Positions 27,173 through 55,471 of a stretch of DNA of 64,000 nucleotides are shown here, in pieces (within the stretch, counting starts at the first letter, position 1; every line of letters begins with the position of its first letter). The stretch comes from an uncultured Chloroflexia bacterium (GTDB lineage Bacteria; Chloroflexota; Limnocylindria; Limnocylindrales; CSP1-4): the NCBI GenBank assembly GCA_963762445.1, contig CAVXLA010000007.1, positions 72,546 to 136,545 of the forward strand, read 5' to 3'. The notes beneath the pieces are model-generated. The model saw nothing but the letters and a program-made list of their open reading frames with translations, made no database searches and was not told where the DNA came from. A program made the translations under genes and the position numbers.

Positions 27173-28906
27173 TCAGTTGCCGGCAGGCGCCGCGGAACCC
27201 GCGTCCTGCGGCCGGGACGCCACAAGCGGCCAGCGGATACCCTCCGGCACGCTGCCCTGGCCGCTGATGAACGGCGCCGTGACCGGCAGCACTTTCTCCA
27301 CGTGGCAGCGGGCGCAGTAGACCGGCTGGTGGCAGTAGGCGCAGGACTGGTTGCCCGCCTCGCGGATCGCCTGCGCGTGGTTTGTCAGCATCTCGTCGTG
27401 CTTCACGTTCACGGCGCCCGTCTGGTGGCAGTTGAGGCAGTAGTCCCGGGCATGGCACTCGCCGCAGCTCTGACTGCCAGGATCCAGGGAGGTGGCCACG
27501 TTCTTGTGGTTGAAGACGTAAAGCGGGTCGTCGTGCGTCGAGGGCGGCTCCCCGAGCGGCAGGCTGGCGACGGCGATCCCGATCTGGGGGAACGTGTGGC
27601 ACGTGTCGCACGTCGCCGGGATGACCTCCTCCTGGACGACCCCGTCCTTCACGAGGTGGTGCCCGCCGTCGTGGCAGCGGAAGCAGCCCGGGAAGTCGAG
27701 GTGGCCGAGGAAGTCGGGGTAGCTCGCGGCCGAGACCTTCATGTCCGGCGTCGCCGACAGGCGGTAGAGGATCTTGATCTGGGCGATCGCCTGGTCGATG
27801 GCGATCTTCTGCGTCGCGGCCACGGTCGGGTAGCGGAGCTCGTAGAAGCTGCGCAGCTTGTCCGCCTCGGCGTCGGCGGCCGTCGCGTCCGGGTAGATGG
27901 ACCAGAGGATCCGGAGACCCTCGCGCTTGATCCAGGGGAGCGACGGGTCGATGCGGCCGGCGGCAAGGTCGGCGTCGAGGCTGCGGCGCGGGTTGGGGAT
28001 CGGGTGGCCCACGCGGTTGTGGCAGTTAAGGCAGTCCATGGTCCGGCCCTTCTCGGCCGCCTTGAGGCGGTCGATGTCGGGCTGGACATCCTCTGACACC
28101 TCCACCTGGTCCTGGGCGACGAACTCCTTGACGGTCCCGTCGTCCTCCGTGACCGCGACGTAGTCGATCTTCTCGGCGTTCTCGTCCGGTGTCCGGAACT
28201 CGACGTGGCGGAGCACGTGCCAGTGGACGCTGCGCTTGACGTCGAAGACGTCGCCCGAGCCGGGCCGGATCATCAGGCCCACGAACTGGCGGGTGTTGGC
28301 CTCGTCCTCGGTGAAGGAGGTCCGGGTGATCAGGTTCGCCGTGGCGAGCCGCTCCAGCGAGTGGCAGCGCAGGCAGGTGTCGTTCACCGACGGCAGGGCG
28401 CTGTGGTCCGGCGGCGGCACGGGCTTGGGATAGAGCCCGGTGATCACCTGGATCAGCTGGCGGGTCCCGTTCAGCTTGGCCTTGATCCAGCCGTCGACGC
28501 CGGGCTCCACGTGGCACTCGCCGCAGGTGACGTCGCGGTGTGGTCCCGCGTCGTAGGCGGCCAGCTCGGGGCCCATCTGGTGGCAGCGCCCGCAGAAGTC
28601 GGCCGTCTCCGTCCAGTGGATGAGCGAGACGCTGGTCCAGACGCCGGCGAAGGCGAAGGCGCCCACGACGAGCAGGAGGGCGAAGATCCCGCGGCGGGTG
28701 CGCGGCAGCCGGACGTGGATCGAGCGGCCGCGGAGGCGGTGCCGCGTGGGGACCGCCGCCTCTTTCGCGGGGGCTGCCTCGCCGTCGAGGTCGGCCGCGT
28801 CGACCGGGATGCCCGCGTCGAGCTCCGTCGAGACGTCCGGGTGCGCGGCGCTCCGGGTGCCGTCGACCGGCTCGTCGGCGGGGGCAGGCGTTCCGGGCTC
28901 GCTCAT
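27173..28906 (-). CDS. Membrane-anchored decahaem c-type cytochrome with an N-terminal NapC/NirT(NrfH)-like module
   Basis: One TM helix (IFALLLVVGAFAFAGVWTSVSLI). Ten CxxCH motifs: CGRCH, CGECH, CLRCH, CLNCH, CFRCH, CDTCH, CGECH, CLNCH, CAYCH and CARCH. The first four follow the NapC/NirT arrangement directly after the TM helix. Confidence 0.85.
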   Translation of the reverse strand: MSEPGTPAPADEPVDGTRSAAHPDVSTELDAGIPVDAADLDGEAAPAKEAAVPTRHRLRGRSIHVRLPRTRRGIFALLLVVGAFAFAGVWTSVSLIHWTETADFCGRCHQMGPELAAYDAGPHRDVTCGECHVEPGVDGWIKAKLNGTRQLIQVITGLYPKPVPPPDHSALPSVNDTCLRCHSLERLATANLITRTSFTEDEANTRQFVGLMIRPGSGDVFDVKRSVHWHVLRHVEFRTPDENAEKIDYVAVTEDDGTVKEFVAQDQVEVSEDVQPDIDRLKAAEKGRTMDCLNCHNRVGHPIPNPRRSLDADLAAGRIDPSLPWIKREGLRILWSIYPDATAADAEADKLRSFYELRYPTVAATQKIAIDQAIAQIKILYRLSATPDMKVSAASYPDFLGHLDFPGCFRCHDGGHHLVKDGVVQEEVIPATCDTCHTFPQIGIAVASLPLGEPPSTHDDPLYVFNHKNVATSLDPGSQSCGECHARDYCLNCHQTGAVNVKHDEMLTNHAQAIREAGNQSCAYCHQPVYCARCHVEKVLPVTAPFISGQGSVPEGIRWPLVASRPQDAGSAAPAGN

Positions 28907-28931
28907 CTGGATGACTCCGTCGGTCGTCTCG

Positions 28932-29537
28932 TCAGCCGTTGACCAGCTGCGAGACGAGCTGATCCATGTCGGCCGGCGTCAACCGCCCGATCCGCACGTC
29001 GCGGATCGTCCCGTCGCGCCCGACGAAGAAGTGGATCGGGATGCCGTAGGTCCGGTAGAGGTCGGCGATCGTCCCCTGGGGGTCGGCCACCAGCGGGAAG
29101 GTGAAGCCCACCCGCCTCGCGTAGTCGCTGACGGCAGCCTGGTCCTCGTCGATGAAGACCCCCAGGACGGCCAGCCCCTGCGGCTGGTACTTGACGTAGG
29201 CGGCCTGGAGGTCGGTGGCCTCCGCCCGGCAGTCCGGGCACCAGCTGGCCCCGAACGTCAGCCACGTGGGCTGGCCCTTCAGGGCGGCCATGGAGACCGC
29301 CGAGCCGTCGATCGCCGTCCCCGAGAAGTCCGGGGGCGTGTCGCCGACGCGCGGGGGCGCCCCCACCGGGGCCGCGCCGGGCCGGACGTTGGGGCCGCCC
29401 GAGGGCTGGTCCACGAACCAGGCCGCGGCGACCAGGAGAACCGCCACGACGGCCAGGACGAGGACTGTCCGCAGCCGGCCCGCGCCGAGACCGGAGGGCC
29501 GCGTCGCGGGGACCGGCACTGCATCCATGAGCGTCAC
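28932..29537 (-). CDS. resA: Thiol:disulfide oxidoreductase (ResA/TlpA/CcmG-like thioredoxin)
   Basis: TM anchor plus the thioredoxin fold motif FGASWCPDCRAE. Sits in a System II ccs context. Confidence 0.85.
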   Translation of the reverse strand: MTLMDAVPVPATRPSGLGAGRLRTVLVLAVVAVLLVAAAWFVDQPSGGPNVRPGAAPVGAPPRVGDTPPDFSGTAIDGSAVSMAALKGQPTWLTFGASWCPDCRAEATDLQAAYVKYQPQGLAVLGVFIDEDQAAVSDYARRVGFTFPLVADPQGTIADLYRTYGIPIHFFVGRDGTIRDVRIGRLTPADMDQLVSQLVNG

Positions 29538-29556
29538 TCCCGTCGTCGGCCGGGGC

Positions 29557-30441
29557 TCAGCCGAGGCCGGAGTAGCTGTGGAGCCCGCCGAAGAAGAGGT
29601 TGCCGAAGTACGTCATGAGCGTGGCGCCGAAGCCGACGAGCAGGAGGATCGCCGCCTTGTTGCCCCGCCAGCCGCGGACGACGCGGGCGTGGAGGTAGGC
29701 ACCGTAGATGAACCAGGTCACGAGCGACGCGGTCTCCTTGGGGTCCCAGCCCCAGTAGCGGCCCCAGGCCACGTCGGCCCACAGGGCGCCGAGGACGATC
29801 GTGAGGGTGAGGAAGGGGAAGCCGACGACGATCGCCCGGTAGCCGATCTCGTCGAGGACCTGCGGCTTGGGGAGCCCCCAGCGGCCGGTCTCGGGCTGGA
29901 TGAGGTAGAGGAGGGCTGCCGCGAAGGCGATCGTGAAGGAGCCGTAGGCGACGATCGCCGTGGCGACGTGAACGGAGAGAAGGAGGTTGTTCTGGAGCGC
30001 CGGGACGAGCGGCTCGATGTCGGCCGGGATCGTCAGGGCGTAGCCCAGGAGGGCGAGGGCGACGGGGAATGCCAGCAGGCCCAGGACGCGCTGGTGGTAC
30101 TTGCGCTCGAACCAGAGGTAGGCGCCGAGGATCCCGAACGCGAAGGCGACGGAGAACTCGTACATGTTGGAGAAGGGCCCGTGGCCGGTGGCGATGGTGC
30201 GGAAGACGAGGCTCGCGCCCAGCAGGAGGAAGCCCAGCCACCCCAGGATCGTGGCGTAGTGCCCGATCGAGGCGGTCCGGGGCCCGGACACGAAGCCCAC
30301 GCGGCCGGTGGACATCGGCACGCCCGCGGCGGCGAGCCGGGCGGCCCGCACGCCGGAGACGGCGTAGAGGACGTACGCGATCAGGGCCAGGGCCGTCATC
30401 GCGATCCCTGCTTCGAGGGAGTAGATGGCCATCTTTTCCAT
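29557..30441 (-). CDS. ccsA: Cytochrome c biogenesis protein CcsA/ResC
   Basis: AGGAG RBS. Trp-rich haem-handling motif WGRYWGWDPKETASL. Multi-TM. Confidence 0.9.
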   Translation of the reverse strand: MEKMAIYSLEAGIAMTALALIAYVLYAVSGVRAARLAAAGVPMSTGRVGFVSGPRTASIGHYATILGWLGFLLLGASLVFRTIATGHGPFSNMYEFSVAFAFGILGAYLWFERKYHQRVLGLLAFPVALALLGYALTIPADIEPLVPALQNNLLLSVHVATAIVAYGSFTIAFAAALLYLIQPETGRWGLPKPQVLDEIGYRAIVVGFPFLTLTIVLGALWADVAWGRYWGWDPKETASLVTWFIYGAYLHARVVRGWRGNKAAILLLVGFGATLMTYFGNLFFGGLHSYSGLG

Positions 30442-30451
30442 GGTTCCGCTC

Positions 30452-31912
30452 CTAGCTCCGCGCCTGGGCCGACACGGCCTGGCGGATCTCCGTGACGATG
30501 GTGGTGAACTCGGTGTCGAAGCCGGTGTCGCGGCGGCCGACCGCAGCCAGGGAGAGGGAGGTGCCGCCGCCCGGCCGCGCCACGAGGCGGCCCCAGATGC
30601 GCCGGTACGGGACGTAGAGGCGGATGACGAACCCGACGATCAGGAGGACGCAGCCGAGCCAGACGAGGGGCGTCCCGGGGTCGTTGGCGACGCTCAGGCC
30701 GGTGAACTTGGTTTCGCGGTCGAAGGTGAAGACCAGGCCCTCGATCGTCGTCGCGACGCCCTGGTCGATCGCCTGCTGGGTCACCGCGTCGCCGGTGTCG
30801 GAGCGGTAGAGCTCCACCGCGACCTGGCCCGGCTTGACGCTCGGGTCGTTGGGTCCCGTGGTGGCCACGATCCAGGCCGTCAGGTCCTGGCCCGGGACAG
30901 TGAACGAGCCGACCTTGTTACCGCCGTTGTTGGAGGTCCAGGCGAGCGGGACGCCCTCCGAGTAGAGGGTCGAGCCGGCGGCGTCCTTCACGGTCACGAC
31001 GGCGGCCGGGCCGAAGAACGCCTGAAAGAACGACATGCCCCGGTAGCGGAGCGGCTCGTTGACCCGGACCTGCTGCTGGGCGGCGACCTGGCCGTCCTGG
31101 GTCACCGTGATGTCGCTGACGTAGTCGAGCGGGGCGCCCGTTGTCGTGTTGTAGGTGTCCTTGAAGGAGTTCAGGGTGATCGTCGCCCCGGGCACCGTCG
31201 GGATCGCGGAGGTGGCGCCCTCGGCCAGCATGAACTGCGCGTCGCGGAAGCCCCACATGGAGCCGACCAGCGCGCCGGCAAGGATCACCACGATGGCGAC
31301 GTGGGCCACCAGGCCTGCCCAGGGAGCCCAGCTGTTCCGGACGGCGTAGAGGTGGACGGTGCCGTCGTCCTCCGTGATCGTGCCGTAGTGGTGGCGCTTG
31401 AAGACCTGTCCGGCCTCGGCGAGGACCTCGTCCGGCTTCCGCTGGAAGGTCATGGCCTCGTGCTGGGGCGCGTGCTCGAAGAAGGCCGGGCCAACGTCTA
31501 CGTGCGGCTTCCGCGTCGTCCGCCAGGTGCCCGGGATCCGGTGCACGGTGCAGGCGATCAGCGACGCGGCCAGGAGGGCCCCGATGACCCGCACCCAGAC
31601 CGAGGTGAAGATCTCGAAGACCTGGAGGCGGTCCATGAGGTCCGTCCAGCCGCCGAAGCGGGGCCGGATCTCGGCCAGCCAGCCGGCCTTGGCCTGCGGG
31701 TCGTCGGAGATGCCGGCCGGCGCCTGGATGACCAGGGTCCCGACCAGCGTCAGGGCCGCGAAGACGAGCATCAGGACGAGGGCCAGCTTCATCGAGGTGA
31801 GGAAGTGCCAGAGCCTGTCCAGCGCGGAGTCCACGGCGCCCATGCGCTCGGCGGCGCCCGGGGCCGGCACCGGGCCGCCCGGGAGCTCGTGGGTAGCTGC
31901 GTTCTGGGTCAT
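30452..31912 (-). CDS. resB: Cytochrome c biogenesis protein ResB/Ccs1
   Basis: GGAGG RBS. N-terminal SMKLALVLMLVFA TM helix, a large extracytoplasmic domain and C-terminal TM helices. Position between ccdA and ccsA. Confidence 0.85.
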   Translation of the reverse strand: MTQNAATHELPGGPVPAPGAAERMGAVDSALDRLWHFLTSMKLALVLMLVFAALTLVGTLVIQAPAGISDDPQAKAGWLAEIRPRFGGWTDLMDRLQVFEIFTSVWVRVIGALLAASLIACTVHRIPGTWRTTRKPHVDVGPAFFEHAPQHEAMTFQRKPDEVLAEAGQVFKRHHYGTITEDDGTVHLYAVRNSWAPWAGLVAHVAIVVILAGALVGSMWGFRDAQFMLAEGATSAIPTVPGATITLNSFKDTYNTTTGAPLDYVSDITVTQDGQVAAQQQVRVNEPLRYRGMSFFQAFFGPAAVVTVKDAAGSTLYSEGVPLAWTSNNGGNKVGSFTVPGQDLTAWIVATTGPNDPSVKPGQVAVELYRSDTGDAVTQQAIDQGVATTIEGLVFTFDRETKFTGLSVANDPGTPLVWLGCVLLIVGFVIRLYVPYRRIWGRLVARPGGGTSLSLAAVGRRDTGFDTEFTTIVTEIRQAVSAQARS

Positions 31913-31925
31913 GCGTGTGCCTCCG

Positions 31926-32693
31926 TCAGCCGCCGAGCGGCGCCGTGATTGCCGCGAGACGCGCCAGCAGGTTGGTGACCATGAGGACGCCGAGCACGAT
32001 CAGCAAAGCCCCGCTCACGAGCGAGACGGCGCGGTGGTGGCGCCCGACCCAGCCGAGCCGGCGGGCGACCCACGTCGCGCCCATCGCGACGGCAAGGAAC
32101 GGCACGGCGAGGCCGGCCGCGTAGGCAAGGAGAAGGACGGTGCCCTGGGCCACGCTGGCGGTCGAGGATGCGAGGCCGATAATCCCGCCCAGGATCGGTC
32201 CGATGCAGGGGCTCCAGCCGGCGGCGAAGACGACGCCGAAGAGGAGCGAACGGCCGTAGCCGGGGGCCCCCACGCCGGTCCCGCCGCCGAGGGCGACGGT
32301 CCCGCCGCCAATCGTGGCGCCGCCCAGGGCCGCCCCGCCGAAGACGGGCATGGGCCGCGTGTCGCGCCATAGGGCCCGCACGTTGATCACGCCGGCGACC
32401 TGCAGCCCCAGGACCACCAGGACCGCGCCGCCGATCATGCGCAGGTACTTCGCGTTGTCGGCGAGGGCGTAGCCGATCGCCCCGATGGAGGCCCAGAAGG
32501 CGACGAAGACGATCGTGAAGCCGGCGACGAAGGCCAGGCCGTGGAGGAGACTCCGGCGGCGGTCGGCCTCGCCGGTGGCGCCCACCATGTACCCGATGTA
32601 GGCGGGCACGAGCGGCAGGCAGCACGGCGAGGCGAAGGAGACGACGCCGGCAAGGAAGGCGACGACGAGGCCGATCCCGGCCCCGACGGTCAT
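31926..32693 (-). CDS. ccdA: Cytochrome c biogenesis thiol-reductant transporter CcdA (DsbD family)
   Basis: SFASPCCLPLVPAYIGY and AGWSPCIGPILGGI, the two conserved Cys-containing TM motifs. Confidence 0.9.
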   Translation of the reverse strand: MTVGAGIGLVVAFLAGVVSFASPCCLPLVPAYIGYMVGATGEADRRRSLLHGLAFVAGFTIVFVAFWASIGAIGYALADNAKYLRMIGGAVLVVLGLQVAGVINVRALWRDTRPMPVFGGAALGGATIGGGTVALGGGTGVGAPGYGRSLLFGVVFAAGWSPCIGPILGGIIGLASSTASVAQGTVLLLAYAAGLAVPFLAVAMGATWVARRLGWVGRHHRAVSLVSGALLIVLGVLMVTNLLARLAAITAPLGG

Positions 32694-33943
32694 GGCTGGG
32701 GGCTCCCGGACGGCGCCACGGAAGGCGCCGGGCTGGCGGGGGCCGTCGATGGCGCCGGGCTGGCGGCCGGCGACGCTGCCGGAGAGCCGGCCGGGCCGGG
32801 CGAGGCCGAGGCCAAGCCGGCGATCGCCGTCAGGTGGGCCTGCACCGTCTTGGCCAGCTGGCTCCCCGGATCCAGCTCGATGACCCGGTTCCAGTGGAGC
32901 TCGACGGCCGCCAGGTCGGGCGGCTGGCGGTTGAAGTAGAGGAAGCCGAGGTCATAGTGCGCCTCGACGCTCGCCTCGTCGATGTCGAGCGCCTTCCGCC
33001 AGGCGACCTCGGCCGCGTCCTGGTCGCCGTTGTTGAAGGCGGTGGCGCCCAGGGCCAGGAAGCCGCGCGCCTTCCCGGGCTCCAGCGTGGTGACCTTGGT
33101 GAACCAGTCGCCGGCCGTGGTGAAGTCGCCGATCCGGTAGTACTCGTCGCCGAGCGCCATCAGCGAGTCGGCGTCCTTGGGGTTCGCCTGGATCTTGCCC
33201 ATCAGAGTGGCGACCTTCGCCTGGTCGAGCACCGCGGCGCTGGGCGCCGCGGTGGCTGCCGGGCTGGCGCCGGCGCCGATGCCGCCCCCGCCGCTGCCGC
33301 CGAAGCCGTAGCCGACGACGGCGACGATCCCGATGGCGGCGACCGTCGCGCCGACCAGGGCAAGGTTGCGGAAGGCCTTCGAGGCGAGAAGCTCACCGAG
33401 GGCGCTGCTGCGCGGGGCGCTCACCGGCCGCACGGCCGCGAGGGCGGCCGCCCGCTGGGCGGCGGTTCCGACGATCTCGCGGCGGGCGGACGGATCCACC
33501 TCGGCGAGCAGGGCGTCGATCTCGTCGTCGCTGACGATCCGGCGCCCGTTCTCGTCGTAGCGCGGCAGTGGTGGGGCCGGAGCTGCCGTCGCGGCGGGGG
33601 GAACCGCGACGGCAGCCGGCGCAGGGGAATCCCGGTGGGCCGGAGGTGTCGCCGACCCACCGGGAAGGACGGCCGACCGTGCGCCCGCCCCGACGAGGGC
33701 GACGGCGCGAGCGAGCGCGGCCGGGTCCGTGAGAAGTGCGTACGCCTCGTCGGCTCCGGCAGCCTGGGTCCGGGCCCAGGAGCGGAGGCCGCGCGGCGCC
33801 GCGGCGAGGTACGCGGAGACCGCCTCGTGGGCGGCCCCCAGGTCCTCGGGGGTGGCGGACGGGTCGAGGCCGAGACGGGCCAGGAGCTCGCGCTCCAGCT
33901 TCTCGGCGGGCGTCGCCCTGGGGGTGGCGGGCGACGCGCTCAT
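32690..33943 (-). CDS. Membrane-anchored TPR-repeat protein, coupled to ccdA
   Basis: ATG 33943 follows a GGGAG RBS, and the stop overlaps the ccdA start (ATGA at 32690-32693). Contains a central TM helix (NLALVGATVAAIGIVAVVGYGF), C-terminal TPR repeats (LMALGDEYYRIGDFTTAGDWFTKV...) and an Ala/Pro/Ser-rich tail. Confidence 0.65.
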   Translation of the reverse strand: MSASPATPRATPAEKLERELLARLGLDPSATPEDLGAAHEAVSAYLAAAPRGLRSWARTQAAGADEAYALLTDPAALARAVALVGAGARSAVLPGGSATPPAHRDSPAPAAVAVPPAATAAPAPPLPRYDENGRRIVSDDEIDALLAEVDPSARREIVGTAAQRAAALAAVRPVSAPRSSALGELLASKAFRNLALVGATVAAIGIVAVVGYGFGGSGGGGIGAGASPAATAAPSAAVLDQAKVATLMGKIQANPKDADSLMALGDEYYRIGDFTTAGDWFTKVTTLEPGKARGFLALGATAFNNGDQDAAEVAWRKALDIDEASVEAHYDLGFLYFNRQPPDLAAVELHWNRVIELDPGSQLAKTVQAHLTAIAGLASASPGPAGSPAASPAASPAPSTAPASPAPSVAPSGSPQP

Positions 33944-34100
33944 CGCGTCGCTCCCGCCGGGCGCGCCCACCGGGCGCGCGCTCGTGCTGCGTCCATTGCC
34001 GGTTGCCCTCGTTGCGCACCGGGTCCATGCCCGGTCCCTTGACACCTGCGGCCAATTGTCCGGGTCGCGGGCCGGTGATCCCATCTGCCGGGGGACACAA

Positions 34101-34116
34101 ATGCGCGCGCGCGCAT
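34101..34116. promoter_or_regulatory. Perfect 16-bp palindrome ATGCGCGCGCGCGCAT (alternating CG core)
   Basis: Read directly. It lies in the 309-bp gap between the octahaem gene stop (34253) and the TPR gene start (33943). Confidence 0.3.
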
Positions 34117-34252
34117 AGGTTCGGCCGATAGGGGGAGCTTTCAGGCGGTGTACCGATCGATACAGGGGGCGCCGGGCGGGCAGCCGCCCTGGGGCGGCCT
34201 GGATCATGGCCCGAGGCGACCTCGGGCGGCGGCGTCCCCCGTGCCGCCTCGC

Positions 34253-37027
34253 TCAGTAGGTCTCGCCGTCGTGAGGCCAGCCGTGGCAGATGAGCGTGCA
34301 GCTGCCGCCGGTCGCCGTCTTCGTGAACTTGATCACGCCGTTCGCGTCGGGATACGGCTCGACATTCGGCGCGAAGTTGACGAGCCCGGTGTTGGCGCGA
34401 TCCCCGGCGTTGAACGCCTGCGCCGTGGAGTGCGTGCGGAAGTGGCACTCAGCGCAGATGGCGTTGCCGCCGCCTTCCCCTGGCGAGTCGATGCTCGTGC
34501 CGCGGGGGCCGTCGCCGGCGATCGTCGACACGTGGAGATCGTGGTCGTCGAAGACCGTCATGATGGCCGTGCCGCTGCGGAAGGGGGCCTCCGCGTGGCA
34601 GACGTAGCAGAGCGCGAAGTCGGCCCCGTCGTACGCCTCGTCCCACGACTTCAGGACCCGGTCGCGGTAGTTCTGGATCAGGAGTCCGCGGTACTGGCTC
34701 GTGTGCGGCGCCAGGTCGTCGCCGGCGGCGGTCGGGCTCGTCCCGGCCGTGGGCAGGGTCGCGTTGTACTTCCGCGGATCGCCGTGGCAGTTGACGCAAC
34801 GCACGGTGCTGGCGGTCGTGAAGTTCCACTGCTTGTACGGCGAGCTGTTGTTCAGGCTCCAGGTCATCTGGTCCGAGTCGTTCGTGCCCCGCGCCTCAAC
34901 CGGGTGGTACGACGCGTTGGCCGGGTTCAGCTCGATCGCCTTGTCGAGCGCCCACGTCGATGGGAACGTAAGGTCGGGTGCCGGGAGCGTCGTGAACCCG
35001 GAGTGGCACTTCAAGCAGACCTCGTACTCCCGATCCGGCTGGGACCCGGCCGCGCCGCTGAGGAACGTGTAGGTCGGCGGCTCGCCGGGCAGGCCGTTCG
35101 CGACGGAGACGCCCGAGATCGCAACCTGCCGTCCCGAAACCGACCAGCCGTCGGTGAACTGGGTGGGCGGCGTGGCCGTCGCGTTGTGCGTGTTGTGGCA
35201 GTCCGCGCACTCGGCGTGCCGGTTCAGGGCGCCCCCGAACTCGTTGTCCTTCGCGAGCGTGTGGGCGATCGGCGCCGACGTGCTGAGCGCGTCGTGGCGG
35301 TAGTAGGCGCTCGGCACCGTGCCCGGGGTCCCGGCGCTGTTGTCGGGCACCGCCGGGTCCGTGTACTGCGCCGTCGTGACCAGGTTCGAGCCCGTGCCGT
35401 CGTGACAGGTGAAGCACATGTTCGCCAGGGGTGCCGGCCTGGCGACCAGGCCGGTGTTCTCGGCGACGTGCGACCGGTGGCAGACGGCGCAGGTGTCCGA
35501 CACCAGGGTCATGTCCGGCACGTGGAGCGACGTGAACGGGGCCGCGAGCTGGTAGCGGGTCGCGGGCGCGGTCTGGGTCGCGACCGCCAGGCGGTAGGTT
35601 GGCGTCCCGCTCGCGAGCCATGTCGTCGCCATGAGGGCGGGCGTCACCAGCGGGAAGTCGACCCCGCTCACCGCCGACGGCCGCGCGTCCACCGGGGGAC
35701 CGACCGGGATGCCGTCGCGCTGGCCCGGCGACGCAGCGAATGCCGTCCGCGATGCGCTCCAGACCTGGCCGAGCGCCGCGCCGTGGATCGGCCGGGCACC
35801 GTCGACGAGCCTGAAGTCGAAGGCCTGCCCCAGCGGGAGGGCGCGGGTGACTCTCACCGTGAACTCGACCTCGGTGAAGGAGTCGCCTGCCAGGACGAGG
35901 CCGGGAACGCGGGTCGAGCCCATGAAGCGCGCGCCGGCCGCGGGCTCCTGCGTGTCGAAGTCGCGGTCGTGGACCCGGATGGCGCTCGTCGGGATCTCCT
36001 CCGAGAGGGGACCGGGGAGGGTGCCGCGGCCGCCCGCCATCGGGCGCCACTCCACGCCGACGTAGAACGGGACCTCGATCTCGCGGCGCCCGAGGGGGAC
36101 GTCGGCATAGGCCGGCTCGCCGCCGAGGCGGAACTGGAGGCGGGGGGTGACCTCGACGGGCACCGTGTCGGCGTTGCGCAATTGGAAGCCGATCCGGAAG
36201 GTGTCGTAGCGATCGACGCCGAGCAGGGGCTCGTCGGCGGCGAGGTAGTCCACCTGGTGGCTGACGCCGCCGATACGAGCCAGCGTGACGTGTTCCACGA
36301 TGATGTCGGGCGCCACGCGCAACCCCAGGGACGCGGCGTCGAGCAGCCCACCGGCGTGCTCCAGCCGGGCCTCGAGGATCGCGTCGAAGGCGGGCCGGTT
36401 CTCCGGCGACCGGGCCGGAGCCCGCAGGCGCACCGTCTCAGTCACGCGGTCGCCGGCGGCGAGGATGCCCTCCATCCAGGTGATGGTCCCGTTGTCCGGG
36501 TCGACGGTCCCGCCGCCGGTGCCGACCGGGCTCCAGCCAGGCGGCACGATCGCGATCAGCCGCACGTCCTTGGCGCGGTCGAGCACCCGGGCCGTCAGGC
36601 CGACGGTGACGATGGATCCTGGATCGACACGGCGACGCCCGGCGGCCGGTGCGTCAGCCGACACGCTCAGGGTCCCGCGAACGACCGTTGGCGTCGGAGT
36701 GGGGCTCGGGCTGGGCGTCGGGCTCGGCGTGGGCGAGGGATCGGGCGTCGGCGTTGGCGAGGGATCGGGCGTCGGCGTTGGCGAGGGATCGGGCGTCGGC
36801 GTTGGCGAGGGATCGGGCGTCGGCGTTGGCGAGGGATCGGGCGTCGGCGTTGGCGAGGGATCGGGCGTCGGCGTTGGCGTCGGATCGACGGCCGGAGCGG
36901 GCGTGGGATCGACGGCGCCGACCGACGGGACGACCGGCGTAAAGGCGAGGACCGCCACGACCGCCACCAGCACGGCCCCGAAGACAGGACCGGCGCGGTG
37001 TTGAGCGGTCTGACGCTTGGTGATCAT
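34253..37027 (-). CDS. Large modular secreted/anchored multihaem c-type cytochrome (7 CxxCH + 1 CxxxCH)
   Basis: GGAGGA RBS and an N-terminal hydrophobic anchor/signal. (DPSPTPTP)n linker, then a non-haem region of about 450 aa. The C-terminal haem domain carries CAVCH, CFTCH, CADCH, CLKCH, CVNCH, CYVCH, CAECH and a terminal CTLICH. Confidence 0.8.
36735..36878. repeat. Perfect 24-bp tandem repeat x6 (gagggatcgggcgtcggcgttggc) inside the octahaem gene
   Basis: Six identical units start at 36735, 36759, 36783, 36807, 36831 and 36855. They encode the (PSPTPTPD)6 linker on the minus strand. Confidence 0.95.
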
Positions 37028-37144
37028 GTTGCCTGAGTCCTCCGGGGCCCCGTGGTCGCGGAAGCGACCACGGGGTTGGGAGTAGGTCCTGGCGCAACCG
37101 GCGTGGAGGTCGGCTCGCGGTGGACCGCTGGACGTTGTCTTAGG

Positions 37145-38374
37145 TCAGGGAAGAATCGGGACGGGCACGGGGCCAGCAGCAGGCTCCCCCGAGTCCGTCG
37201 GGTCGTGGCACATCTGGCACGTTCCGCGGTTGTCGACCTTGAGGAGGCGGCTGTCGGTGCTGGCGGTGGTCGACACCGGGTCGAACACGCCGCCCACGAT
37301 GTTGTCGGGGAACGCCACGTGCTGGGAGTTGTACCCGGGCATCAGGGCATTCGAGCCGTGGGCCACGTGGCACGTGGTGCACGGCCTGCTGCTCGTGGTG
37401 TCGTGCCGGTACTTGTAGATGGCGTCGGTGGTTTCGTTGCCGAACCCACTCTGGTAATACCGCGTGTGGCATGTGCTGCACCACGCGGTGATCTGGGTCT
37501 TGAAGATCGTCTTGTCGGCATTGCCGATGGGATTGTCGTAGTCGTTCCGGCTCGCGGACGTCCACGGCACGCGCTGGTGCCAGTAGTCACCGGCGGAAGC
37601 GTTGCCGACGGCAGCGACGTCAGTTGCGAGGTAGATCTGGCCGCCGGAGGCATCGGTCTGGATGACGGTGTAGTTGCGCGTGGCCCCGTTGAGGTCCGCC
37701 GCCAGCGTCGGGCCGTCGGGGACGATCGCCGGGGCCGCCAAGGGCTCGGTGAGTCCCGGCGGCGGGTTCGGTTCCGGCCTCAGGATCCGGTAGTTGCCGT
37801 TCCCGTGCGGGTTATGGCACGACCCGCACGCGAGCGTCACGACCGGCCCGGGCTCGGGCGTCGTAGAGTCGGGCCCGTTGCCCCAGGCGCGTCCCGGGGT
37901 GGTCGCGAACGTGGCGCCCGCAAGCTTCAGGTGCGCCGAGGTCGTCGGCAGTCCCGAAGCCAGGGCAGGAACCTTGCGGTTCCCGGTGGCGCTCCGCCAC
38001 GCGTCCGACGAAGCGATACGGGCGAAGACGAAGCCGCCACCGCGGAGGGCGCCGATGACGGCGGTCCCTCTGATGGTGCCAGCGCTCGCATCGCCGGCGT
38101 CGAACTGGACGCCGTCCACGACGTTGGTCGTGGCGCCGGTCCCATTGGTGCCGTGGCAAACCAGGCACAGCGTCGCCTGGTCGGTGATGAGCTGGAATTC
38201 GGCCTGCGCGGTGTGGGCCCGATGGCAGCCGGCGCAACTGTCGGACGTGAGGCCCAGGGGGCCCGAGCCGTCGTTGTTCGCTGCCACGTGAGGTCCACCA
38301 TCCGCCAGGGCCGGAATCGCGGCAAGGAACAGCCAGAGCGCGGCTCCTGCGAGCAGGAGCGTCCATCGCCTCAC
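37145..38374 (-). CDS. Secreted hexahaem c-type cytochrome (paired-CXXCH type; OmcS-like by motif context)
   Basis: AAAGGAGGTGA RBS, then GTG 38374. Signal peptide ...FLAAIPALA|DGG. Six CxxCH motifs at aa 47, 70, 183, 299, 332 and 386 (CAGCH, CLVCH, CGSCH, CSTCH, CTTCH, CQMCH). At least 8 additional His are available as distal ligands. Confidence 0.8.
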   Translation of the reverse strand: MRRWTLLLAGAALWLFLAAIPALADGGPHVAANNDGSGPLGLTSDSCAGCHRAHTAQAEFQLITDQATLCLVCHGTNGTGATTNVVDGVQFDAGDASAGTIRGTAVIGALRGGGFVFARIASSDAWRSATGNRKVPALASGLPTTSAHLKLAGATFATTPGRAWGNGPDSTTPEPGPVVTLACGSCHNPHGNGNYRILRPEPNPPPGLTEPLAAPAIVPDGPTLAADLNGATRNYTVIQTDASGGQIYLATDVAAVGNASAGDYWHQRVPWTSASRNDYDNPIGNADKTIFKTQITAWCSTCHTRYYQSGFGNETTDAIYKYRHDTTSSRPCTTCHVAHGSNALMPGYNSQHVAFPDNIVGGVFDPVSTTASTDSRLLKVDNRGTCQMCHDPTDSGEPAAGPVPVPILP

Positions 38375-38482
38375 TGTCCTCACCTCCTTTCTCTGACTCT
38401 GCGGTGTCTCGACGAATGGGCCGCCACGATCGGCGGCGAGCATCGGTCCGGCGTCACCTCCCTCTTCGTGATCCCAGGAGCC

Positions 38483-39550
38483 TCAGTAGCTCCAGATCTG
38501 CACGCGGTCGTTGAACGTGTCAGCCACGTACACGCGTCCGCGCGCGTCGACCGCGACGCTGTTGGGGTACTCGAACCGCGCGTCCCCCACGCCCTCGCCG
38601 CCGATGTAGCCGAGGAAATCGAGGCGGCGGCTGTCGTCGGTAGGTGGGCGGTAGACGAAGACGCCCTGGCCGGTCGAGTCGGCGACGAACACCCGCCTGC
38701 TGCCGTCGACGGCCAGACCGCGCGGCAGTCCGAGGTTGCCCTGGCCGGCTCCGCGGCCGATCTGGGCATGGATCGTGCCATCGGCGCCGAACATGAGCAG
38801 GCGGCCGTTGTTGCTGTCGGACACATAGACGTTGCCGGCCCCGTCGACCGCGACCCCGTTCGGGAACGAGAGCTTGCTTGTCTCGCCGAGCGTCCGGACG
38901 ACCGTGGCCGTGCGGTCGATGACGAGGACCTTCTGGAAGGGGCCCGAGAGGTCCGTCACGTACAGGTTGCCCTTGGTGTCGAAGGTCAACCCCAGGGGCT
39001 GCCAGCCCGGCCGCGGCAGCGCGAGCGTGAGCTCGCGCTGGAAAGCCCCGTCGCGGTCGTAGATGTAGATCGCCCCGGCCAGGCGGTCGCTGACGTAGAC
39101 CTCGCTCGTGAGGGGGTCAATCGCCAGGTAGACAGGCGCGTGGTCGGTCCCGGTCGCCTCTGGCGGCGCCATCGTGCCGACCTTGTTGCCGCCCGCATCG
39201 AAGACGATCCCGGTCCGATCGCCCGACGACTGGGCGACGTAGATGCGGTCGCCCGACGGGCTGACGGCCACGCCGGAGGGACGCAGGGCGCCGTAGATGG
39301 CCGTCGCGTAGGAGGGCACTTCCGTCTGCGGGATCCCCGGGAGGGGCAGAGGGGGTATCGGCTGGCGGAACAGCAGATACCAGGTGGCAATCGTCGCCAG
39401 CATTGCCAGGAGGCCCAGGAGGAGGAGCGCGACGATCGCCTTGCGGCGCCGCCGGGGCTGCGCCTCGGGCTCGCCCTCGACGGCCGGCGGGCTGGGGGTG
39501 TCGTCGGCGGCCGGGACCGGGAGGCCGTCGGTGGTCATCTCGGCGGTCAT
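38483..39550 (-). CDS. Membrane-anchored NHL-repeat beta-propeller protein
   Basis: TM helix (IVALLLLGLLAMLATIATWYLLF) followed by repeated NHL-type blades (P.GVAV...G.IYV.D..N.RI..F). Examples are PSGVAVSPSGDRIYVA, PLGLTFDTKGNLYVTD, PNGVAVDGAGNVYVSDSNNGRLLMF, PRGLAVDGSRRVFVADS and PNSVAVDARGRVYVADTFNDRVQIW. TGATG overlap with the upstream TPR gene. Confidence 0.85.
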   Translation of the reverse strand: MTAEMTTDGLPVPAADDTPSPPAVEGEPEAQPRRRRKAIVALLLLGLLAMLATIATWYLLFRQPIPPLPLPGIPQTEVPSYATAIYGALRPSGVAVSPSGDRIYVAQSSGDRTGIVFDAGGNKVGTMAPPEATGTDHAPVYLAIDPLTSEVYVSDRLAGAIYIYDRDGAFQRELTLALPRPGWQPLGLTFDTKGNLYVTDLSGPFQKVLVIDRTATVVRTLGETSKLSFPNGVAVDGAGNVYVSDSNNGRLLMFGADGTIHAQIGRGAGQGNLGLPRGLAVDGSRRVFVADSTGQGVFVYRPPTDDSRRLDFLGYIGGEGVGDARFEYPNSVAVDARGRVYVADTFNDRVQIWSY

Positions 39551-40536
39551 CAGCCGTTCCCTCCGGCCGGCGCGCCGGGCGTCGGCAGAGCGGGCAGCGA
39601 GGTCGCGCCGGGGCCGACGCGGCTCATCCCGAGACGTGCGGCGGCGTTCTGCGGGTCCTTGGCGAGCGCCTTGCCATACCAGTCGGCTGCCGTCGCGGTG
39701 TCGCCCTTCGTCTCGTACAGGAGGCCGAGGCCGATCGCCGCGTCCAGCGCGGCGTCGCCGTCCACGATCGCGAGGAGGCGAGGCTCGGCGAGCTCGGGCT
39801 TCCCACCGTTCAGGTCGGCCATGGCGCCGGCCCATTCGGCCTCGGCCGTCTTGCCGGCCTTCGTGAAGCCCTCGGCGAGCGCCGTGTACGGCTCGCTCCA
39901 GCCGATCGGCACGAAGGCGATCGCGGACCGCAGGGCGGTTTCGGCCTTGCCGGTCTCGCCGGTCGCGACGTAGGCCGTCCCGATCAGGTAGAGGGCGTCC
40001 GCGTCCGAGCGCTGGATCGCGAGGGCCTTCTCAAGGAAGGGGATTGCCTCGGCCGGCTTTGCCTGCTGCATTGCGATCGAGCCGAGGCTGTAGTACGCCG
40101 CCTCGAGCGTGGGGTCGACGTTGGCCATCTCGCCGCCCTTGGCGATGTCGACGACCGCCTGGTAGTCCTTCGCCGCGTCGTCGAGTCGGCCGAGGCCCAT
40201 GTAGGCGGCGGCGCGCCCGAACGTGGCCAGCTCGGTCTCCTTGTTCGACTCGAGGATCAGGTTGTACTGGACGATCGCGTCCTCGAAACGGCCCTTGGCG
40301 ACGTACGTGTCGGCGAGCTCACCGCGCGAGGCGACGTCGTCCGGCGTGTCGCGCACGGCCTGCTCCAGCGCGGTGAGGCGCTGGTCGACGATCGGCGTGG
40401 TGGCCGGGCGCCAGCGATCGAGCGCGTAGAAGCCCACGAAGGCGATCGTTCCGACGACGAGGAGCAGCAGAACCCGCTTGATCAGCCGGTTGAGCTGCCG
40501 ATCGTCCATCTTGGTCGGGGACGTGACCCGGAACAT
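39550..40536 (-). CDS. Membrane-anchored TPR-repeat protein
   Basis: N-terminal TM helix (VLLLLVVGTIAFVGFYAL) followed by several TPR units (GELADTYVAKGRFEDAIVQYN..., AAYYSLGSIAMQQAKPAEAIPFLEKAL..., GLLYETKGDTATAADWYGKALAKDP). The start is ATG 40536 (AGGTG RBS) or GTG 40545. Confidence 0.8.
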   Translation of the reverse strand: MFRVTSPTKMDDRQLNRLIKRVLLLLVVGTIAFVGFYALDRWRPATTPIVDQRLTALEQAVRDTPDDVASRGELADTYVAKGRFEDAIVQYNLILESNKETELATFGRAAAYMGLGRLDDAAKDYQAVVDIAKGGEMANVDPTLEAAYYSLGSIAMQQAKPAEAIPFLEKALAIQRSDADALYLIGTAYVATGETGKAETALRSAIAFVPIGWSEPYTALAEGFTKAGKTAEAEWAGAMADLNGGKPELAEPRLLAIVDGDAALDAAIGLGLLYETKGDTATAADWYGKALAKDPQNAAARLGMSRVGPGATSLPALPTPGAPAGGNG

Positions 40537-40861
40537 GTGTGGCACCTGCTGTTACGACCTGTTAGCGACGCGTTGCAGCACGGGGCGCACCGGGAGGCAC
40601 ACCCCACCGCGGGTAATGGTCGGCTGCAGGGGCGCGCGAGCCAATCCGCCGGGGGGTAGAAGATGGATACAGGCCGGGAGTCGTGCCCGCGATCCGGGCA
40701 TGTATCGGGCGGATGATGGTGCGCAGACGCGCCGCCATGGTCGGGCCCACGGGCGCCGACGATCCTCGCGGAGCCGCTGGGTTCCCGTGCCGATATGCTC
40801 TCTGTCCGCGAGTCGGGAGGGTTCGCCGCCCGGCCCGGAGAAGCCGGAGGGGCGCCGCTCG

Positions 40862-42379
40862 ATGGGCAAGGCGAGCCGCGCGAAGCGGCCGGGGATCGGG
40901 CCCGCCGCGGTCGCGGCGCGGTCCGCGCGGCCCGCGCCGGAGGCGACGGCCGTTGCCCCGGGGGCCTCCTCCACGGGGCTCGGCGGCGCGCTCGCGGGAT
41001 GGGGCTCCGGGCTCGCCTCGATCGCGGCCACGTGCTGGCTGCTCGCGCACGTCCCCGCGCTCGCCCCGGTGGCGATTCCGGCGTGGGTCGTGACGGGCCT
41101 CGCGCTCGGCGTCCTCTCGCCGTGGCTCGGGCTGCTCCTCACGATCGCGGTGGTCCCCTTCCTCGGCGGCGCGATCGAGCCGATCGCCGGCGAGGTCCTC
41201 CGCGTCATGCCGATCTACGGCGCGGCGGCGAGGGTCCTGCTCGACCGGTTCGTGCTCGGGCCACGCCTCGGCCGTGTCGGCCCGGAGGGGCCGCCGTGGT
41301 GGGTCGTCGGGGCGGCCGTCGCGGCGACCGCGCTCTACGCGTACACCGCCCAGACGGGCTTTCTGGCCGCGGGCATGGATCCGCTCTACTTCGACTCCGC
41401 CATCCGCTGGCTGGCCGGCGGTCCGATGGCGATGATGGCCGCCTGGATCGCCGCATCCCACCTGGTTGCCGGCCGGGACACGGCGCTCACCACCGTCGTG
41501 CTGGGAGCGACGGCGGCCGGCTGTGTCCTCGCCCTGGCGGCCTGGCTGGGCGCTCCCGGCGTCGACCTCCTCACCTTCCCGGGCATCGTCAACGGCCGCC
41601 TCGCCGGGCTCGGCTACCCGACCCCGACGGCCATGGGTGTGGCGATCGCCCTGCCGTTCGCGGTCGCCGCGGCGCTCCGCTGGACGCGCTGGCTCGCCTT
41701 CGGCGTCATCGGGCTCGCGCTGGTCGTGATGATTCTCACCTGGTCGCGCGGCCCGCTGATCGCCGTCGGCATCGGGACGGTGGTGGCGGTGCTCGCCAGC
41801 GGGCGCGTCGAGCGGCGCCTCCGCATCGCCGGCCTCGCGGTCGGCGCCGTCGCGCTCCTCGCCCTCGTCGTCGTGCGCTACGGGACGAGCGTCGACGCGA
41901 TCGTCGCGGCCATCGGCGGCAGCGCCGGCAGCGACGTCGACCGGGTGAACACCTGGATCGCGGCGGTCACGATCGCGATCGGGAGCCCGCTGGTGGGTGG
42001 CGGCTGGCACAGCCTGGAGCGCGTCGGCGACTTCGCCACGCGCCAGGTCGCCTACAGCCACAACATCCTCCTCCACGGCTTCGCGGAGGGAGGCATCCCG
42101 CTGGGGATCACGAACGCGACCGTGATCCTCTACTCCGCCTGGCGGACCTGGCTCGGCCGGCACACGATGGCGCCGTACCTCATCGCGGCGGTCGTCGTCT
42201 GCCTGGTCTGCGGCTTCTGGGACATGCCGCAGGTCCGGAGCTACGCCGCGGTCATGGGCGGGATCGCGCTGGGGATGGCCGCCGGCCCGCTCATCGGGCG
42301 GTCAACCGGCGGACCGGCGCCGCGCGCGGCCGGCGCTCAGGCGCTCGGGCGCGGCGTGGAGAAGTCGGCCGCGAGGTAG
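40862..42379 (+). CDS. O-antigen ligase/polymerase-like (Wzy_C family) membrane protein
   Basis: More than 10 predicted TM segments, with LTWSRGPLIAVGIG followed by an extracytoplasmic loop ending in HNILLHGFAEGG. Start at ATG 40862. The 3' end overlaps the convergent Rieske gene by 43 bp. Confidence 0.7.
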   Translation: MGKASRAKRPGIGPAAVAARSARPAPEATAVAPGASSTGLGGALAGWGSGLASIAATCWLLAHVPALAPVAIPAWVVTGLALGVLSPWLGLLLTIAVVPFLGGAIEPIAGEVLRVMPIYGAAARVLLDRFVLGPRLGRVGPEGPPWWVVGAAVAATALYAYTAQTGFLAAGMDPLYFDSAIRWLAGGPMAMMAAWIAASHLVAGRDTALTTVVLGATAAGCVLALAAWLGAPGVDLLTFPGIVNGRLAGLGYPTPTAMGVAIALPFAVAAALRWTRWLAFGVIGLALVVMILTWSRGPLIAVGIGTVVAVLASGRVERRLRIAGLAVGAVALLALVVVRYGTSVDAIVAAIGGSAGSDVDRVNTWIAAVTIAIGSPLVGGGWHSLERVGDFATRQVAYSHNILLHGFAEGGIPLGITNATVILYSAWRTWLGRHTMAPYLIAAVVVCLVCGFWDMPQVRSYAAVMGGIALGMAAGPLIGRSTGGPAPRAAGAQALGRGVEKSAAR

Positions 42380-51825: not shown

Positions 51826-51901
51826 GGGGGAGTAGCTCAGCGGTTAGAGCAGGCGTCTTATACACGCCACGCCGGTGGTTCGAATCCACCCTCCCCTACC
51901 A
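51826..51901 (+). tRNA. tRNA with anticodon UAU (reads AUA; tRNA-Ile2-like), CCA encoded
   Basis: Manual cloverleaf. Acceptor GGGGGAG/CTCCCCT (G1:U72), D arm GCTC-AGCGGTTA-GAGC, anticodon arm GGCGT-CTTATAC-ACGCC, variable loop ACGCC, T arm GGTGG-TTCGAAT-CCACC, discriminator A, then CCA. Confidence 0.8.
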
Positions 51902-52364: not shown

Positions 52365-52493
52365 GTCCCGAGACTACGCCTCCGAGCTGGCGATCACACA
52401 TCCACGGGCCGGCACATCGACCACGAATCACGGTCGGGGAGAGCTCCGCGCGGGTCGGCTCGACCTCCGTCGACATCCCCAGTGGCTCGTTGC

Positions 52494-52509
52494 CTTGCAA
52501 TACTGCAAG
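52494..52509. promoter_or_regulatory. Palindrome CTTGCA-atac-TGCAAG in the arsR-divergent intergenic region (operator candidate)
   Basis: Perfect 6-bp inverted repeat with a 4-bp spacer. It is followed by TATCAT (52526-52531), 6 nt before ATG 52538, which suggests a possibly leaderless transcript. Confidence 0.3.
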
Positions 52510-52537
52510 ATAACGAAGCACACGGTATCATGTGTCC

Positions 52538-55468: not shown

Positions 55469-55471
55469 GCC

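Follow-up and report, generated by a model that had tools for sequence, protein, structure and literature searches.

A conserved cluster of multihaem cytochromes, System II maturation genes and a Rieske protein in Limnocylindria, with a possible role in electron transfer towards the cell surface

What use does a bacterium have for three large multihaem cytochromes that are encoded beside a dedicated machinery for attaching their haems? The question is raised by a locus at positions 27173-40545 of a 64-kb stretch of DNA with ~74% G+C (contig CAVXLA010000007.1, positions 72,546 to 136,545), which we refer to as the window and which comes from an uncultured bacterium of the Limnocylindria. This lineage (Ellin6529 / CSP1-4) is abundant in soils, aquifers and lakes and has no cultured member; its genomes describe aerobic oxidisers of gases and organic carbon, and the lineage is a presumed monoderm, mostly aerobic, with Rubisco in some members. 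An earlier, sequence-only reading of the window had proposed a system for extracellular electron transfer (EET) or a cytochrome filament. Our analysis points to a lineage-wide respiratory module that would build and mature a non-catalytic multihaem conduit, leading from quinol to the surface, on the outer face of a single membrane. We rank this reading first and regard it as an even call.

A cytochrome and maturation cluster conserved across the lineage

Translation of the listed open reading frames (ORFs) bore out the gene order, the common direction and the 24 haem motifs that had been read from the sequence. Ten consecutive minus-strand genes span the interval, in the order TPR protein, NHL propeller, hexahaem cytochrome, 924-amino-acid (aa) cytochrome, TPR protein, CcdA, ResB, CcsB, ResA and decahaem cytochrome (Table 1). 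The decahaem protein carries ten CxxCH motifs and the hexahaem protein six, while the 924-aa protein carries seven, together with one CxxxCH motif (CTLICH). The parts list was likewise correct, with matches in Pfam and NCBIfam supporting the assigned components.

Because of the high G+C content, ORF lists of the window are full of shadow frames, and we therefore used third-position G+C to select coding frames. Among the ORFs in coding frames (third-position G+C >0.85), the three cytochromes are the only ones in the entire window that bear CxxCH. Two long plus-strand ORFs antisense to the cytochrome genes (34148-37036, 962 codons; 37052-39973, 973 codons) were rejected as genes; they failed the codon-position G+C profile of coding frames and are a by-product of the base composition. 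Several ORFs had been over-extended, and their starts were corrected using the gene calls of the closest relative. The revised starts concern the first TPR gene, the NHL gene, the hexahaem gene (a GTG), the second TPR gene and the ResA gene, and are those given in Table 1.

The genes had been described as separated by short gaps or start/stop overlaps. Both overlaps are present (TGATG at 39550 and ATGA at 32690-32693), but a non-coding gap of 309 nucleotides (nt) at 33944-34252, which measures 275 nt in the closest relative, splits the 924-aa octahaem gene from the second TPR gene. Because of this gap, the maturation half may be transcribed as a unit of its own, which would make two units of the ten genes. 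Scans for promoters and terminators gave signals at background level.

Scanning one genome per species, we recovered 77 related loci. All come from metagenome-assembled genomes (MAGs) titled Chloroflexota, Chloroflexi, Chloroflexia, Candidatus Limnocylindria or Limnocylindrales, or Anaerolineaceae, with the exception of one short contig binned as Actinomycetota. Their G+C content is 69-74% in the 23 loci profiled, and the closest locus shows 91% identity to the hexahaem cytochrome of the window. When the ten proteins were searched by tblastn, the same order appeared in virtually every locus long enough to tell. The recurrence of this arrangement in 77 related loci indicates that it is not a product of chance. 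In many loci a second hexahaem paralogue, ~490-900 aa long and with long insertions between haems 3 and 4 and between haems 4 and 5, stands between the NHL gene and the hexahaem gene (for example, L024:8290-9921 and L072:5020-7716); the window is without it.

The hexahaem cytochrome is a distant relative of OmcS

The hexahaem cytochrome has a mature length of 385 residues, and its signal peptide and mature N-terminus, which meet between ALA and DGGPH, are nearly invariant in the family. The family is large: the protein has more than 1,700 database relatives, and the family profile retrieved 2,064 clusters (50% identity, E <=1e-3), 436 of them at E <=1e-30. Beyond the haem motifs, exactly six His residues are conserved (H52, H77, H171, H213, H347 and H362).

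Searches of the PDB with single sequences of the three cytochromes returned only NrfH, for the decahaem protein, and low-complexity matches on a Pro/Thr linker. OmcS of Geobacter sulfurreducens (6EF8) was missed both by the single hexahaem sequence and by a 25-sequence profile. A 149-sequence profile placed OmcS at the top (E=0.0016), in four collinear segments that cover all six haem motifs; MtrA came second (E=0.0027), via repeated generic paired CxxCH motifs. A usable AlphaFold2 model was likewise obtained only from the 149-sequence alignment, which includes paralogues. Modelled with no haems, it reached a predicted local distance difference test (pLDDT) score of 80.5 and a predicted template modelling (pTM) score of 0.80, versus a pLDDT of 37 from the 25-sequence alignment. 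In a Foldseek search of the PDB, the top match of this model was again OmcS (6ef8), along its full length (453 columns), but the match is weak (E=0.026, probability 0.47, TM-score 0.30, ~16% identity).

We then built an alignment of the OmcS family, whose top member is named OmcS by NCBI, and compared the two profiles with hhalign after removal of the signal peptides. The local score was 121, with a probability of 98.6 over haems 1-3 and a collinear continuation to haems 4, 5 and 6, and the global score was 108. As controls, OmcS permuted in six segments scored 50-80 locally and 39-70 globally, and the decahaem protein scored 70. Because permuted OmcS and the unrelated decahaem reach 50-80, the raw hhalign E-value of 5e-16 is not to be taken at face value, and we relied on the differences from the controls. 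The Limnocylindria hidden Markov model (HMM) gave OmcS-family proteins 25.4±6.6 bits, as against -4.5±5.7 for shuffles that preserve CxxCH. In the reverse direction, the OmcS HMM gave the Limnocylindria hexahaem proteins 17.2±6.5 bits, compared with -4.6 for shuffles, -7.9 for the decahaem protein and -3.2 for the haem domain of the 924-aa protein. Overall, profile search, controlled hhalign comparison and HMM scores against shuffles uphold the earlier label "OmcS-like" as a distant, specific relationship, and we regard the hexahaem cytochrome as a remote but genuine relative of the OmcS family.

The two families resemble each other in several respects. OmcS has six CxxCH motifs in the same order, a Sec signal and 407 mature residues, compared with 385 here, and the shared motif contexts are CxGCHxxH, CxSCHxPHG..YR, WCxxCHT, CxxCHxAHxS and a C-terminal CxxCH. 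Each family also conserves six non-motif His. His16, His147 and His335 of OmcS align exactly with H77, H213 and H362, and the other three lie in equivalent segments. H77, the equivalent of His16, is invariant within CAGCHRAH; the CxxCHxxH motif also occurs in MtrA, which is not a filament protein. In OmcS, His16 ligates haem 5 of the neighbouring subunit, and polymerisation is proven for that protein, whereas polymerisation of the hexahaem cytochrome is hypothetical. The families differ in the spacing of haems 4 and 5 (33 residues here versus 90 in OmcS) and in the host envelope, presumed monoderm here and diderm for OmcS.

Membrane and surface ends of the predicted chain

The decahaem cytochrome consists of a cytoplasmic tail, one membrane helix (residues 71-97) and a haem domain. 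Its N-terminus had been described as NapC/NirT-type. It is indeed of the quinol-dehydrogenase type and, more exactly, of the NrfH type. NrfH of Desulfovibrio vulgaris (PDB 2J7A chain C, 2j7a_C) was matched at E=3e-6 by the single sequence and at E=1.8e-11 by the family profile, covering the transmembrane helix and haems 1-3. The protein scores 34.3 bits against Pfam Cytochrom_NNT (cut-off 24.1) and 55 bits against the NrfH equivalog, below its cut-off of 134; it falls far under the cut-offs of the DmsE/MtrA decahaem models. Like NrfH, it combines a CxxCHxM motif at haem 1 (C105-G-R-C-H-Q-M111) with a nearby Lys. M111 and K144 are kept in 95% of 37 homologues and are invariant in our set A3. 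NrfH-type modules oxidise quinol. The residue aligned with Asp89 of NrfH is an invariant Gln in the decahaem family. Haem 4 of NrfH is unaligned, and haems 1-3 are followed by an insert of ~110 residues and seven further haems. NrfH itself has four haems and an NrfA partner, whereas the decahaem protein has ten haems and no such partner: no NrfA-like gene was found in the window or in the 77 loci. Eleven conserved His beyond the motifs are available as distal ligands for the ten haems.

The 924-aa cytochrome is built differently. A signal peptide or anchor is followed by a 75-residue Pro/Thr linker, a region of ~380 aa with no haem motif and a C-terminal haem domain. The DPSPTPTP units of the linker are encoded by a 24-nt tandem repeat (36718-36887, 7.1 copies, 97% matches). 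Protein length varies, as the version of the closest relative has 1,019 aa rather than 924. No significant domain was found in the middle 380 residues (DUF11 only at E=0.3). The haem domain is paralogous to the hexahaem cytochrome (hhalign score 136; 28.5 bits against the hexahaem profile) and has 12 conserved non-motif His for its eight haems. Relatives carry either this 7+1-haem form or a short 3+1 form, with haem 1 and the last three haems common to all. The linker and the variable non-haem module look like a surface-exposed, fast-evolving end. The export signals comprise a cleavable signal peptide on the hexahaem protein, a signal peptide or anchor on the 924-aa protein, and one transmembrane segment in each of the TPR, NHL and decahaem proteins.

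The maturation genes form a complete System II set. The CcsA/ResC-type synthase, ResB and CcdA score above their family cut-offs, and the thioredoxin, with its WCPDC motif, falls below the ResA subfamily cut-off. All four components of System II (CcdA, ResA, ResB, ResC/CcsBA) are thus present in one block. The block differs from the known system in having its presumed client cytochromes on both sides and a dedicated bitopic TPR gene before it. Judging by topology signals, the NHL propeller and the two TPR proteins each cross the membrane once and have their folded parts on the outer side. The second TPR protein is predicted to have a cytoplasmic N-terminal part, one transmembrane segment and an extracytoplasmic TPR region. 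Both TPR proteins weakly match the CcmH/CycH apocytochrome-chaperone TPR model (TPR_CcmH_CycH, E=0.003 for the second), and the second is a candidate apocytochrome or assembly chaperone. The NHL protein matched a ScyF-like NHL model at E=3.7e-29, under the cut-off of that model.

A Rieske protein and a two-component system extend the cluster

The conserved unit does not end at the first TPR gene but reaches upstream to 46082, adding four co-directional genes (Table 1). The sequence-only reading had included neither the conserved Rieske protein and two-component system nor the connection that relatives show to a Rieske/cytochrome b complex. Its statement that the locus holds no Fe-S subunit is true within 27173-40545 but not of the cluster, as the conserved Rieske gene lies just upstream. 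Of the 61 loci with sufficient upstream sequence, ~46 have a Rieske gene ahead of the first TPR gene. Its best PDB matches are Rieske domains of b6f/bc complexes (8hn2, E=1.7e-12), and it keeps the extra disulfide cysteines of the bc1/b6f type. The PetC anchor (TM_PetC) found no match in the Pfam scan of this protein, and no cytochrome b is encoded anywhere in the window.

The start of the kinase gene and the GTG start of the regulator gene were taken from a relative's gene calls. A DevS/DosT-like hypoxia sensor was considered for the kinase and rejected, as its GAF part matches neither the DevS/DosT GAF domains nor any solved relative. The 151-aa receiver-like protein had no match in Pfam.

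In the window, the Rieske gene is separated from the cytochrome genes by an insertion specific to this genome, which the closest relative lacks. The insertion holds a plus-strand gene (~40862-42379) for a membrane protein resembling Wzy_C and O-glycosylation ligases (Wzy_C, E=5e-12; PEP_O_lig_1 and TfpM weak), which is absent from all 77 loci. No terminal or flanking repeats were found around it. Wzy_C-family enzymes O-glycosylate surface proteins, and a link to the Pro/Thr linker of the 924-aa protein is conceivable. The outer flanks of the cluster are unrelated genes, encoding DNA ligase and DUF6812 on one side and a rhodanese on the other, and are unconserved beyond close relatives.

In relatives, the cluster often adjoins genes of a bc-type complex. 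Among the 21 loci whose sequence runs 500 nt or more past the decahaem gene, 10 continue into Rieske/bc genes: often first a PCYCGC-motif protein (PF13798), then a PetC-type membrane-anchored Rieske protein and, in the five loci with a long enough flank, a cytochrome b of 363-377 aa. In L072 and L073, the cytochrome b gene is followed by that of a second ten-haem cytochrome, unrelated in sequence to the first decahaem protein. Eight other loci have PetC and cytochrome b genes just upstream of the kinase, and in the two that were read fully (L019 and L075) a ten-haem cytochrome gene comes next. Examples of these gene sets are at L072:18388-21198, L057:18915-21305, L075:707-3859 and L019:2068-5151, and the bc-linked ten-haem cytochrome, read from L075, has an apparent C-terminal membrane helix. 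The lineage thus encodes a Rieske/cytochrome b complex that includes a decahaem c subunit and tends to adjoin the cluster; nothing of the kind is found in the window. Because these Rieske/cytochrome b genes, with their own ten-haem subunit, stand beside the cluster in relatives, we tie the cluster to quinol-linked respiration.

Table 1. Features of the conserved cluster and of the insertion within it, in window coordinates
Feature	Position	Strand	Basis
Sensor histidine kinase (membrane segments, GAF, HisKA_3, HATPase_c)	44214..46082	-	Pfam; NarQ/NarX-type kinase core; co-directional in 55/77 loci
NarL/LuxR-type response regulator	43535..44254	-	Response_reg + GerE; NarL model E=1.8e-57, under cut-off; GTG start; 56/77 loci
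Small receiver-like protein, 151 aa, no output domain	42910..43365	-	Weak match to N-terminus of NarL receiver, E=3e-5; 58/77 loci
Exported Rieske [2Fe-2S] protein, 174 aa, bc1/b6f type	42337..42861	-	Pfam Rieske E=1.6e-11; twin-arginine SRRHAL; CPHARC...CLCH
Genome-specific insertion, 1.58 kb	40735..42314	.	Flanks contiguous in L001 (DNA comparison); splits Rieske gene from cytochrome genes
Membrane-anchored TPR protein, 328 aa	39550..40536	-	TPR families; one N-terminal hydrophobic segment; position kept in loci
Membrane-anchored NHL beta-propeller, 355 aa	38483..39550	-	NHL E=3.7e-26; TGATG overlap with TPR gene; N-terminal transmembrane segment; position kept
Secreted hexahaem cytochrome c, 409-aa precursor	37145..38374	-	6 CxxCH; GTG start; signal peptide ending in ALA before DGGPH; Paired_CXXCH_1; distant OmcS-family relative
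924-aa cytochrome, 7 CxxCH + 1 CxxxCH	34253..37027	-	Haem motifs; hydrophobic N-terminus; Pro/Thr linker; C-terminal haem domain
Bitopic TPR protein, 417 aa	32690..33943	-	TPR matches; transmembrane segment; ATGA overlap with ccdA; position kept
CcdA, thiol-reductant transporter of System II	31926..32693	-	DsbD_TM (PF02683) 53.4 bits, cut-off 27.1
ResB/CcsB-type haem-handling protein	30452..31912	-	PF05140, 254 bits
CcsA/ResC-type cytochrome c synthase subunit (NCBIfam name CcsB)	29557..30441	-	PF01578 162 bits; TIGR03144 229.6 bits, cut-off 187.6
ResA-like membrane-anchored thioredoxin (WCPDC)	28932..29528	-	AhpC-TSA/Redoxin; ResA model 85 bits, below cut-off 170
Membrane-anchored decahaem cytochrome, 577 aa	27173..28906	-	10 CxxCH; one transmembrane segment at 71-97; NrfH-type N-terminus

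Which way do the electrons go?

For the reading that we favour, the observations themselves are the gene content, the topology signals, the haem and ligand motifs, the conservation and the remote kinship with NrfH and OmcS. We infer from these the order and outward direction of electron transfer, an acceptor (mineral iron or manganese, humics or a partner organism), what the TPR, NHL and Rieske proteins do, and polymerisation, should it occur. The decahaem protein, held by one helix, would exchange electrons with the menaquinol pool at its NrfH-type Met-ligated haem 1 (CxxCHxM), and its ten haems would lead outward. The secreted hexahaem protein of the OmcS family, present in two copies in some relatives, would relay electrons to the large cytochrome, the putative distal or surface end, on a Pro/Thr linker that would be long enough to span the wall. 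CcdA, ResA, ResB and CcsB would attach the 24 haems, with the two anchored TPR proteins and the NHL propeller as possible chaperones or scaffolds. Expression would be controlled by the GAF kinase, the NarL-type regulator and the receiver-like protein, and the exported Rieske protein would be an extra, probably higher-potential, one-electron carrier on the chain.

A catalytic multihaem enzyme of the Nrf, Otr or Hao kind that would convert a soluble nitrogen or sulfur compound, and for which the decahaem protein would be the quinol-oxidising anchor, is suggested by the NrfH-like N-terminus of that protein, since NrfH anchors nitrite reductase. The rest of the evidence makes such an enzyme very improbable. 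No CxxCK was found in the translation of any protein of 27173-40545, and searches of Pfam, NCBIfam and the PDB gave no match to NrfA, Otr or Hao. In each cytochrome, the conserved spare His equal or outnumber the haems: six non-motif His for six haems in the hexahaem protein, at least 11 for ten in the decahaem protein and 12 for eight in the 924-aa protein, enough for bis-His haems in all three. Among the 77 related loci, no gene for such an enzyme was found, and the earlier observation that the locus has no catalytic haem signature therefore extends to the absence of a reductase gene from its conserved neighbourhood. Equally, the sequence-only reading had seen no gene for an MtrB-type porin, and this held: every gene of the interval is accounted for and none is porin-like, which leaves no room for a porin, and the lineage is inferred to be monoderm. 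Porin-cytochrome conduits (MtrCAB / Pcc), by comparison, have a porin gene beside their cytochromes.

Several points weigh against the conduit from quinol to the surface. All of the organisms are uncultured and represented by MAGs. The putative location beyond the membrane is suggested by signal peptides and the linker; a search of the proteins for a sortase, S-layer or lipobox anchor recognised none. The predicted fold match to OmcS is weak (TM-score 0.30, probability 0.47), and the background of scores between multihaem families is high. Given the 309-nt gap within the ten genes and the splitting off of the Rieske gene in this genome, a single operon would be an assumption. Furthermore, the lineage is mostly aerobic, and a Rieske protein of the bc1/b6f type fits a high-potential chain at least as well. 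The maturation genes may also be the only System II set of the genome, standing beside its main clients. The Rieske protein, the two-component system and the Rieske/cytochrome b link in relatives make room for an inward direction or an envelope-internal role.

Were the direction inward, surface cytochromes would draw on extracellular donors (Fe(II) or Mn(II), reduced humics, a partner organism, a cathode), and the electrons would pass through the hexahaem and Rieske proteins to a sink of high potential, for instance a terminal oxidase, while the NrfH-type decahaem protein or the neighbouring bc complex would feed some of them uphill into the quinone pool. Rieske clusters of the bc1/b6f type with the disulfide have a comparatively high potential, and the conserved exported Rieske protein, with its extra disulfide cysteines, speaks for such a sink. 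The largely aerobic character of the lineage, the Rubisco of some members, the bc-complex genes that adjoin the cluster in relatives, and one related locus from a MAG titled 'MnB_4 Mn-Chloroflexi-1' point the same way. However, NrfH-type modules are generally known as quinol oxidisers, the conserved set includes no Cyc2-type or multicopper oxidase, and the sequence sets no direction; we consider inward uptake unlikely. We hold just as doubtful that the cytochromes stay within the envelope and take no part in EET, serving as the c-type carriers of the lineage between the quinol pool (through the NrfH-type decahaem protein and the Rieske/cytochrome b complex) and oxidases or reductases encoded elsewhere. 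The maturation genes would then lie here since these cytochromes are their main clients. The near-universal presence of the cluster in a mostly aerobic lineage, the embedded System II genes, the Rieske/cytochrome b genes adjoining in at least 18 relatives and the 309-nt gap, which permits separate expression of the maturation half, are consistent with that role. Yet 24 haems, and ten more on the bc complex of relatives, far exceed what handing electrons to an oxidase needs; the hexahaem protein is related to OmcS, the Pro/Thr linker and variable non-haem module of the distal cytochrome look surface-exposed, and no oxidase or reductase gene is found in the conserved neighbourhood. The Rieske protein and the bc complex leave the direction unfixed, and transfer outward from quinol, the even call, still ranks ahead of these two.

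A bolder version of outward transfer is that the OmcS-related hexahaem protein, alone or with its paralogue, forms a haem wire that crosses or leaves the monoderm wall of this mostly aerobic and globally abundant lineage, fed by the NrfH-type decahaem protein and, in relatives, also by the Rieske/cytochrome b complex with its own decahaem subunit. We regard a wire of this kind as improbable.

Comparison with known electron-transfer loci

The sequence-only reading had compared the locus with the neighbourhood of Geobacter omcS, to which it ascribed a beta-propeller companion, a prolyl-isomerase-type chaperone and channel-like components. There, omcS is followed by omcT, a gene for a 1,017-aa spermine-synthase-like protein, a third OmcS-like cytochrome, a YncE/lactonase-type propeller, a 718-aa protein and an LpoB-like protein, and a two-component system lies upstream. 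The propeller gene is therefore real, but no prolyl isomerase is encoded within 10 kb of omcS. Sequence similarity between the propeller here and that of Geobacter was unconvincing (BLASTP E=0.017); the one is NHL-type and membrane-anchored, the other YncE/lactonase-like. In both loci, several paralogous cytochrome genes are accompanied by a gene for a beta-propeller and, upstream, by a two-component system. Maturation genes, an NrfH-type decahaem gene and a Rieske gene are all missing from the Geobacter locus.

The EET chains described in monoderm bacteria, those of Thermincola (ImdcA, PdcA, CwcA, OcwA) and Carboxydothermus ferrireducens (OmhA, SmhA-C), follow the same logic of a quinol-oxidising membrane multihaem protein, wall-crossing multihaem proteins and a surface multihaem protein, with no porin (PMC7911101, PMC7829351). 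Their hosts are anaerobic Firmicutes, and their clusters are not described with embedded System II genes, NHL/TPR companions or a Rieske gene. In our PDB searches, the three cytochromes had no sequence-level match to OcwA or to any other solved member of these chains. Candidate EET loci that pair multihaem cytochromes with NHL or other propeller genes are also known from Desulfovibrio ferrophilus (DFE_0448-0465), 'Ca. Tenderia' (Uet) and SEEP-SRB (PMC9769857, PMC10734462, PMC12246660). As here, large multihaem genes adjoin NHL or beta-propeller genes, a likeness by gene content; their hosts are diderm and some of the clusters include porins and prolyl isomerases, whereas no isomerase is found here.

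In full-text literature searches, we found neither this cluster nor any multihaem cytochrome of Limnocylindria described. Its ingredients are known, namely OmcS-family cytochromes, NrfH modules, System II maturation and propeller/TPR companions. What is new is that these ingredients are constantly combined with a Rieske protein, that their host lineage is monoderm and largely aerobic, and that they are linked to a bc complex bearing a decahaem subunit. If electrons do travel from quinol to the surface, Limnocylindria would gain a role in the redox cycling of iron, manganese and humics or in electron exchange with partners, and OmcS-type cytochromes would be extended to the monoderm envelope. 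Should the haem wire exist as well, it would amount to cytochrome-nanowire respiration in Chloroflexota-related bacteria, served by a cassette dedicated to maturation and assembly. Compact, and equipped with maturation genes as well as with candidate assembly factors (TPR, NHL), the cluster is a practical cassette for heterologous expression and for tests of the companions.

Other features of the window

Outside the cluster, ARAGORN and the Rfam tRNA model agree on a tRNA-Ile gene (anticodon TAT) at 51826-51901. ARAGORN also called a 96-nt tRNA-Arg (CCT) on the minus strand at 5302-5397, which the Rfam tRNA model did not report at its gathering threshold and which is doubtful or unusual. The region 52000-58100 has a lower G+C content (0.69 versus ~0.75) and encodes ArsR- and DeoR-type regulators, BtpA, an FGGY sugar kinase and a luciferase-like monooxygenase; it may be an acquired island.

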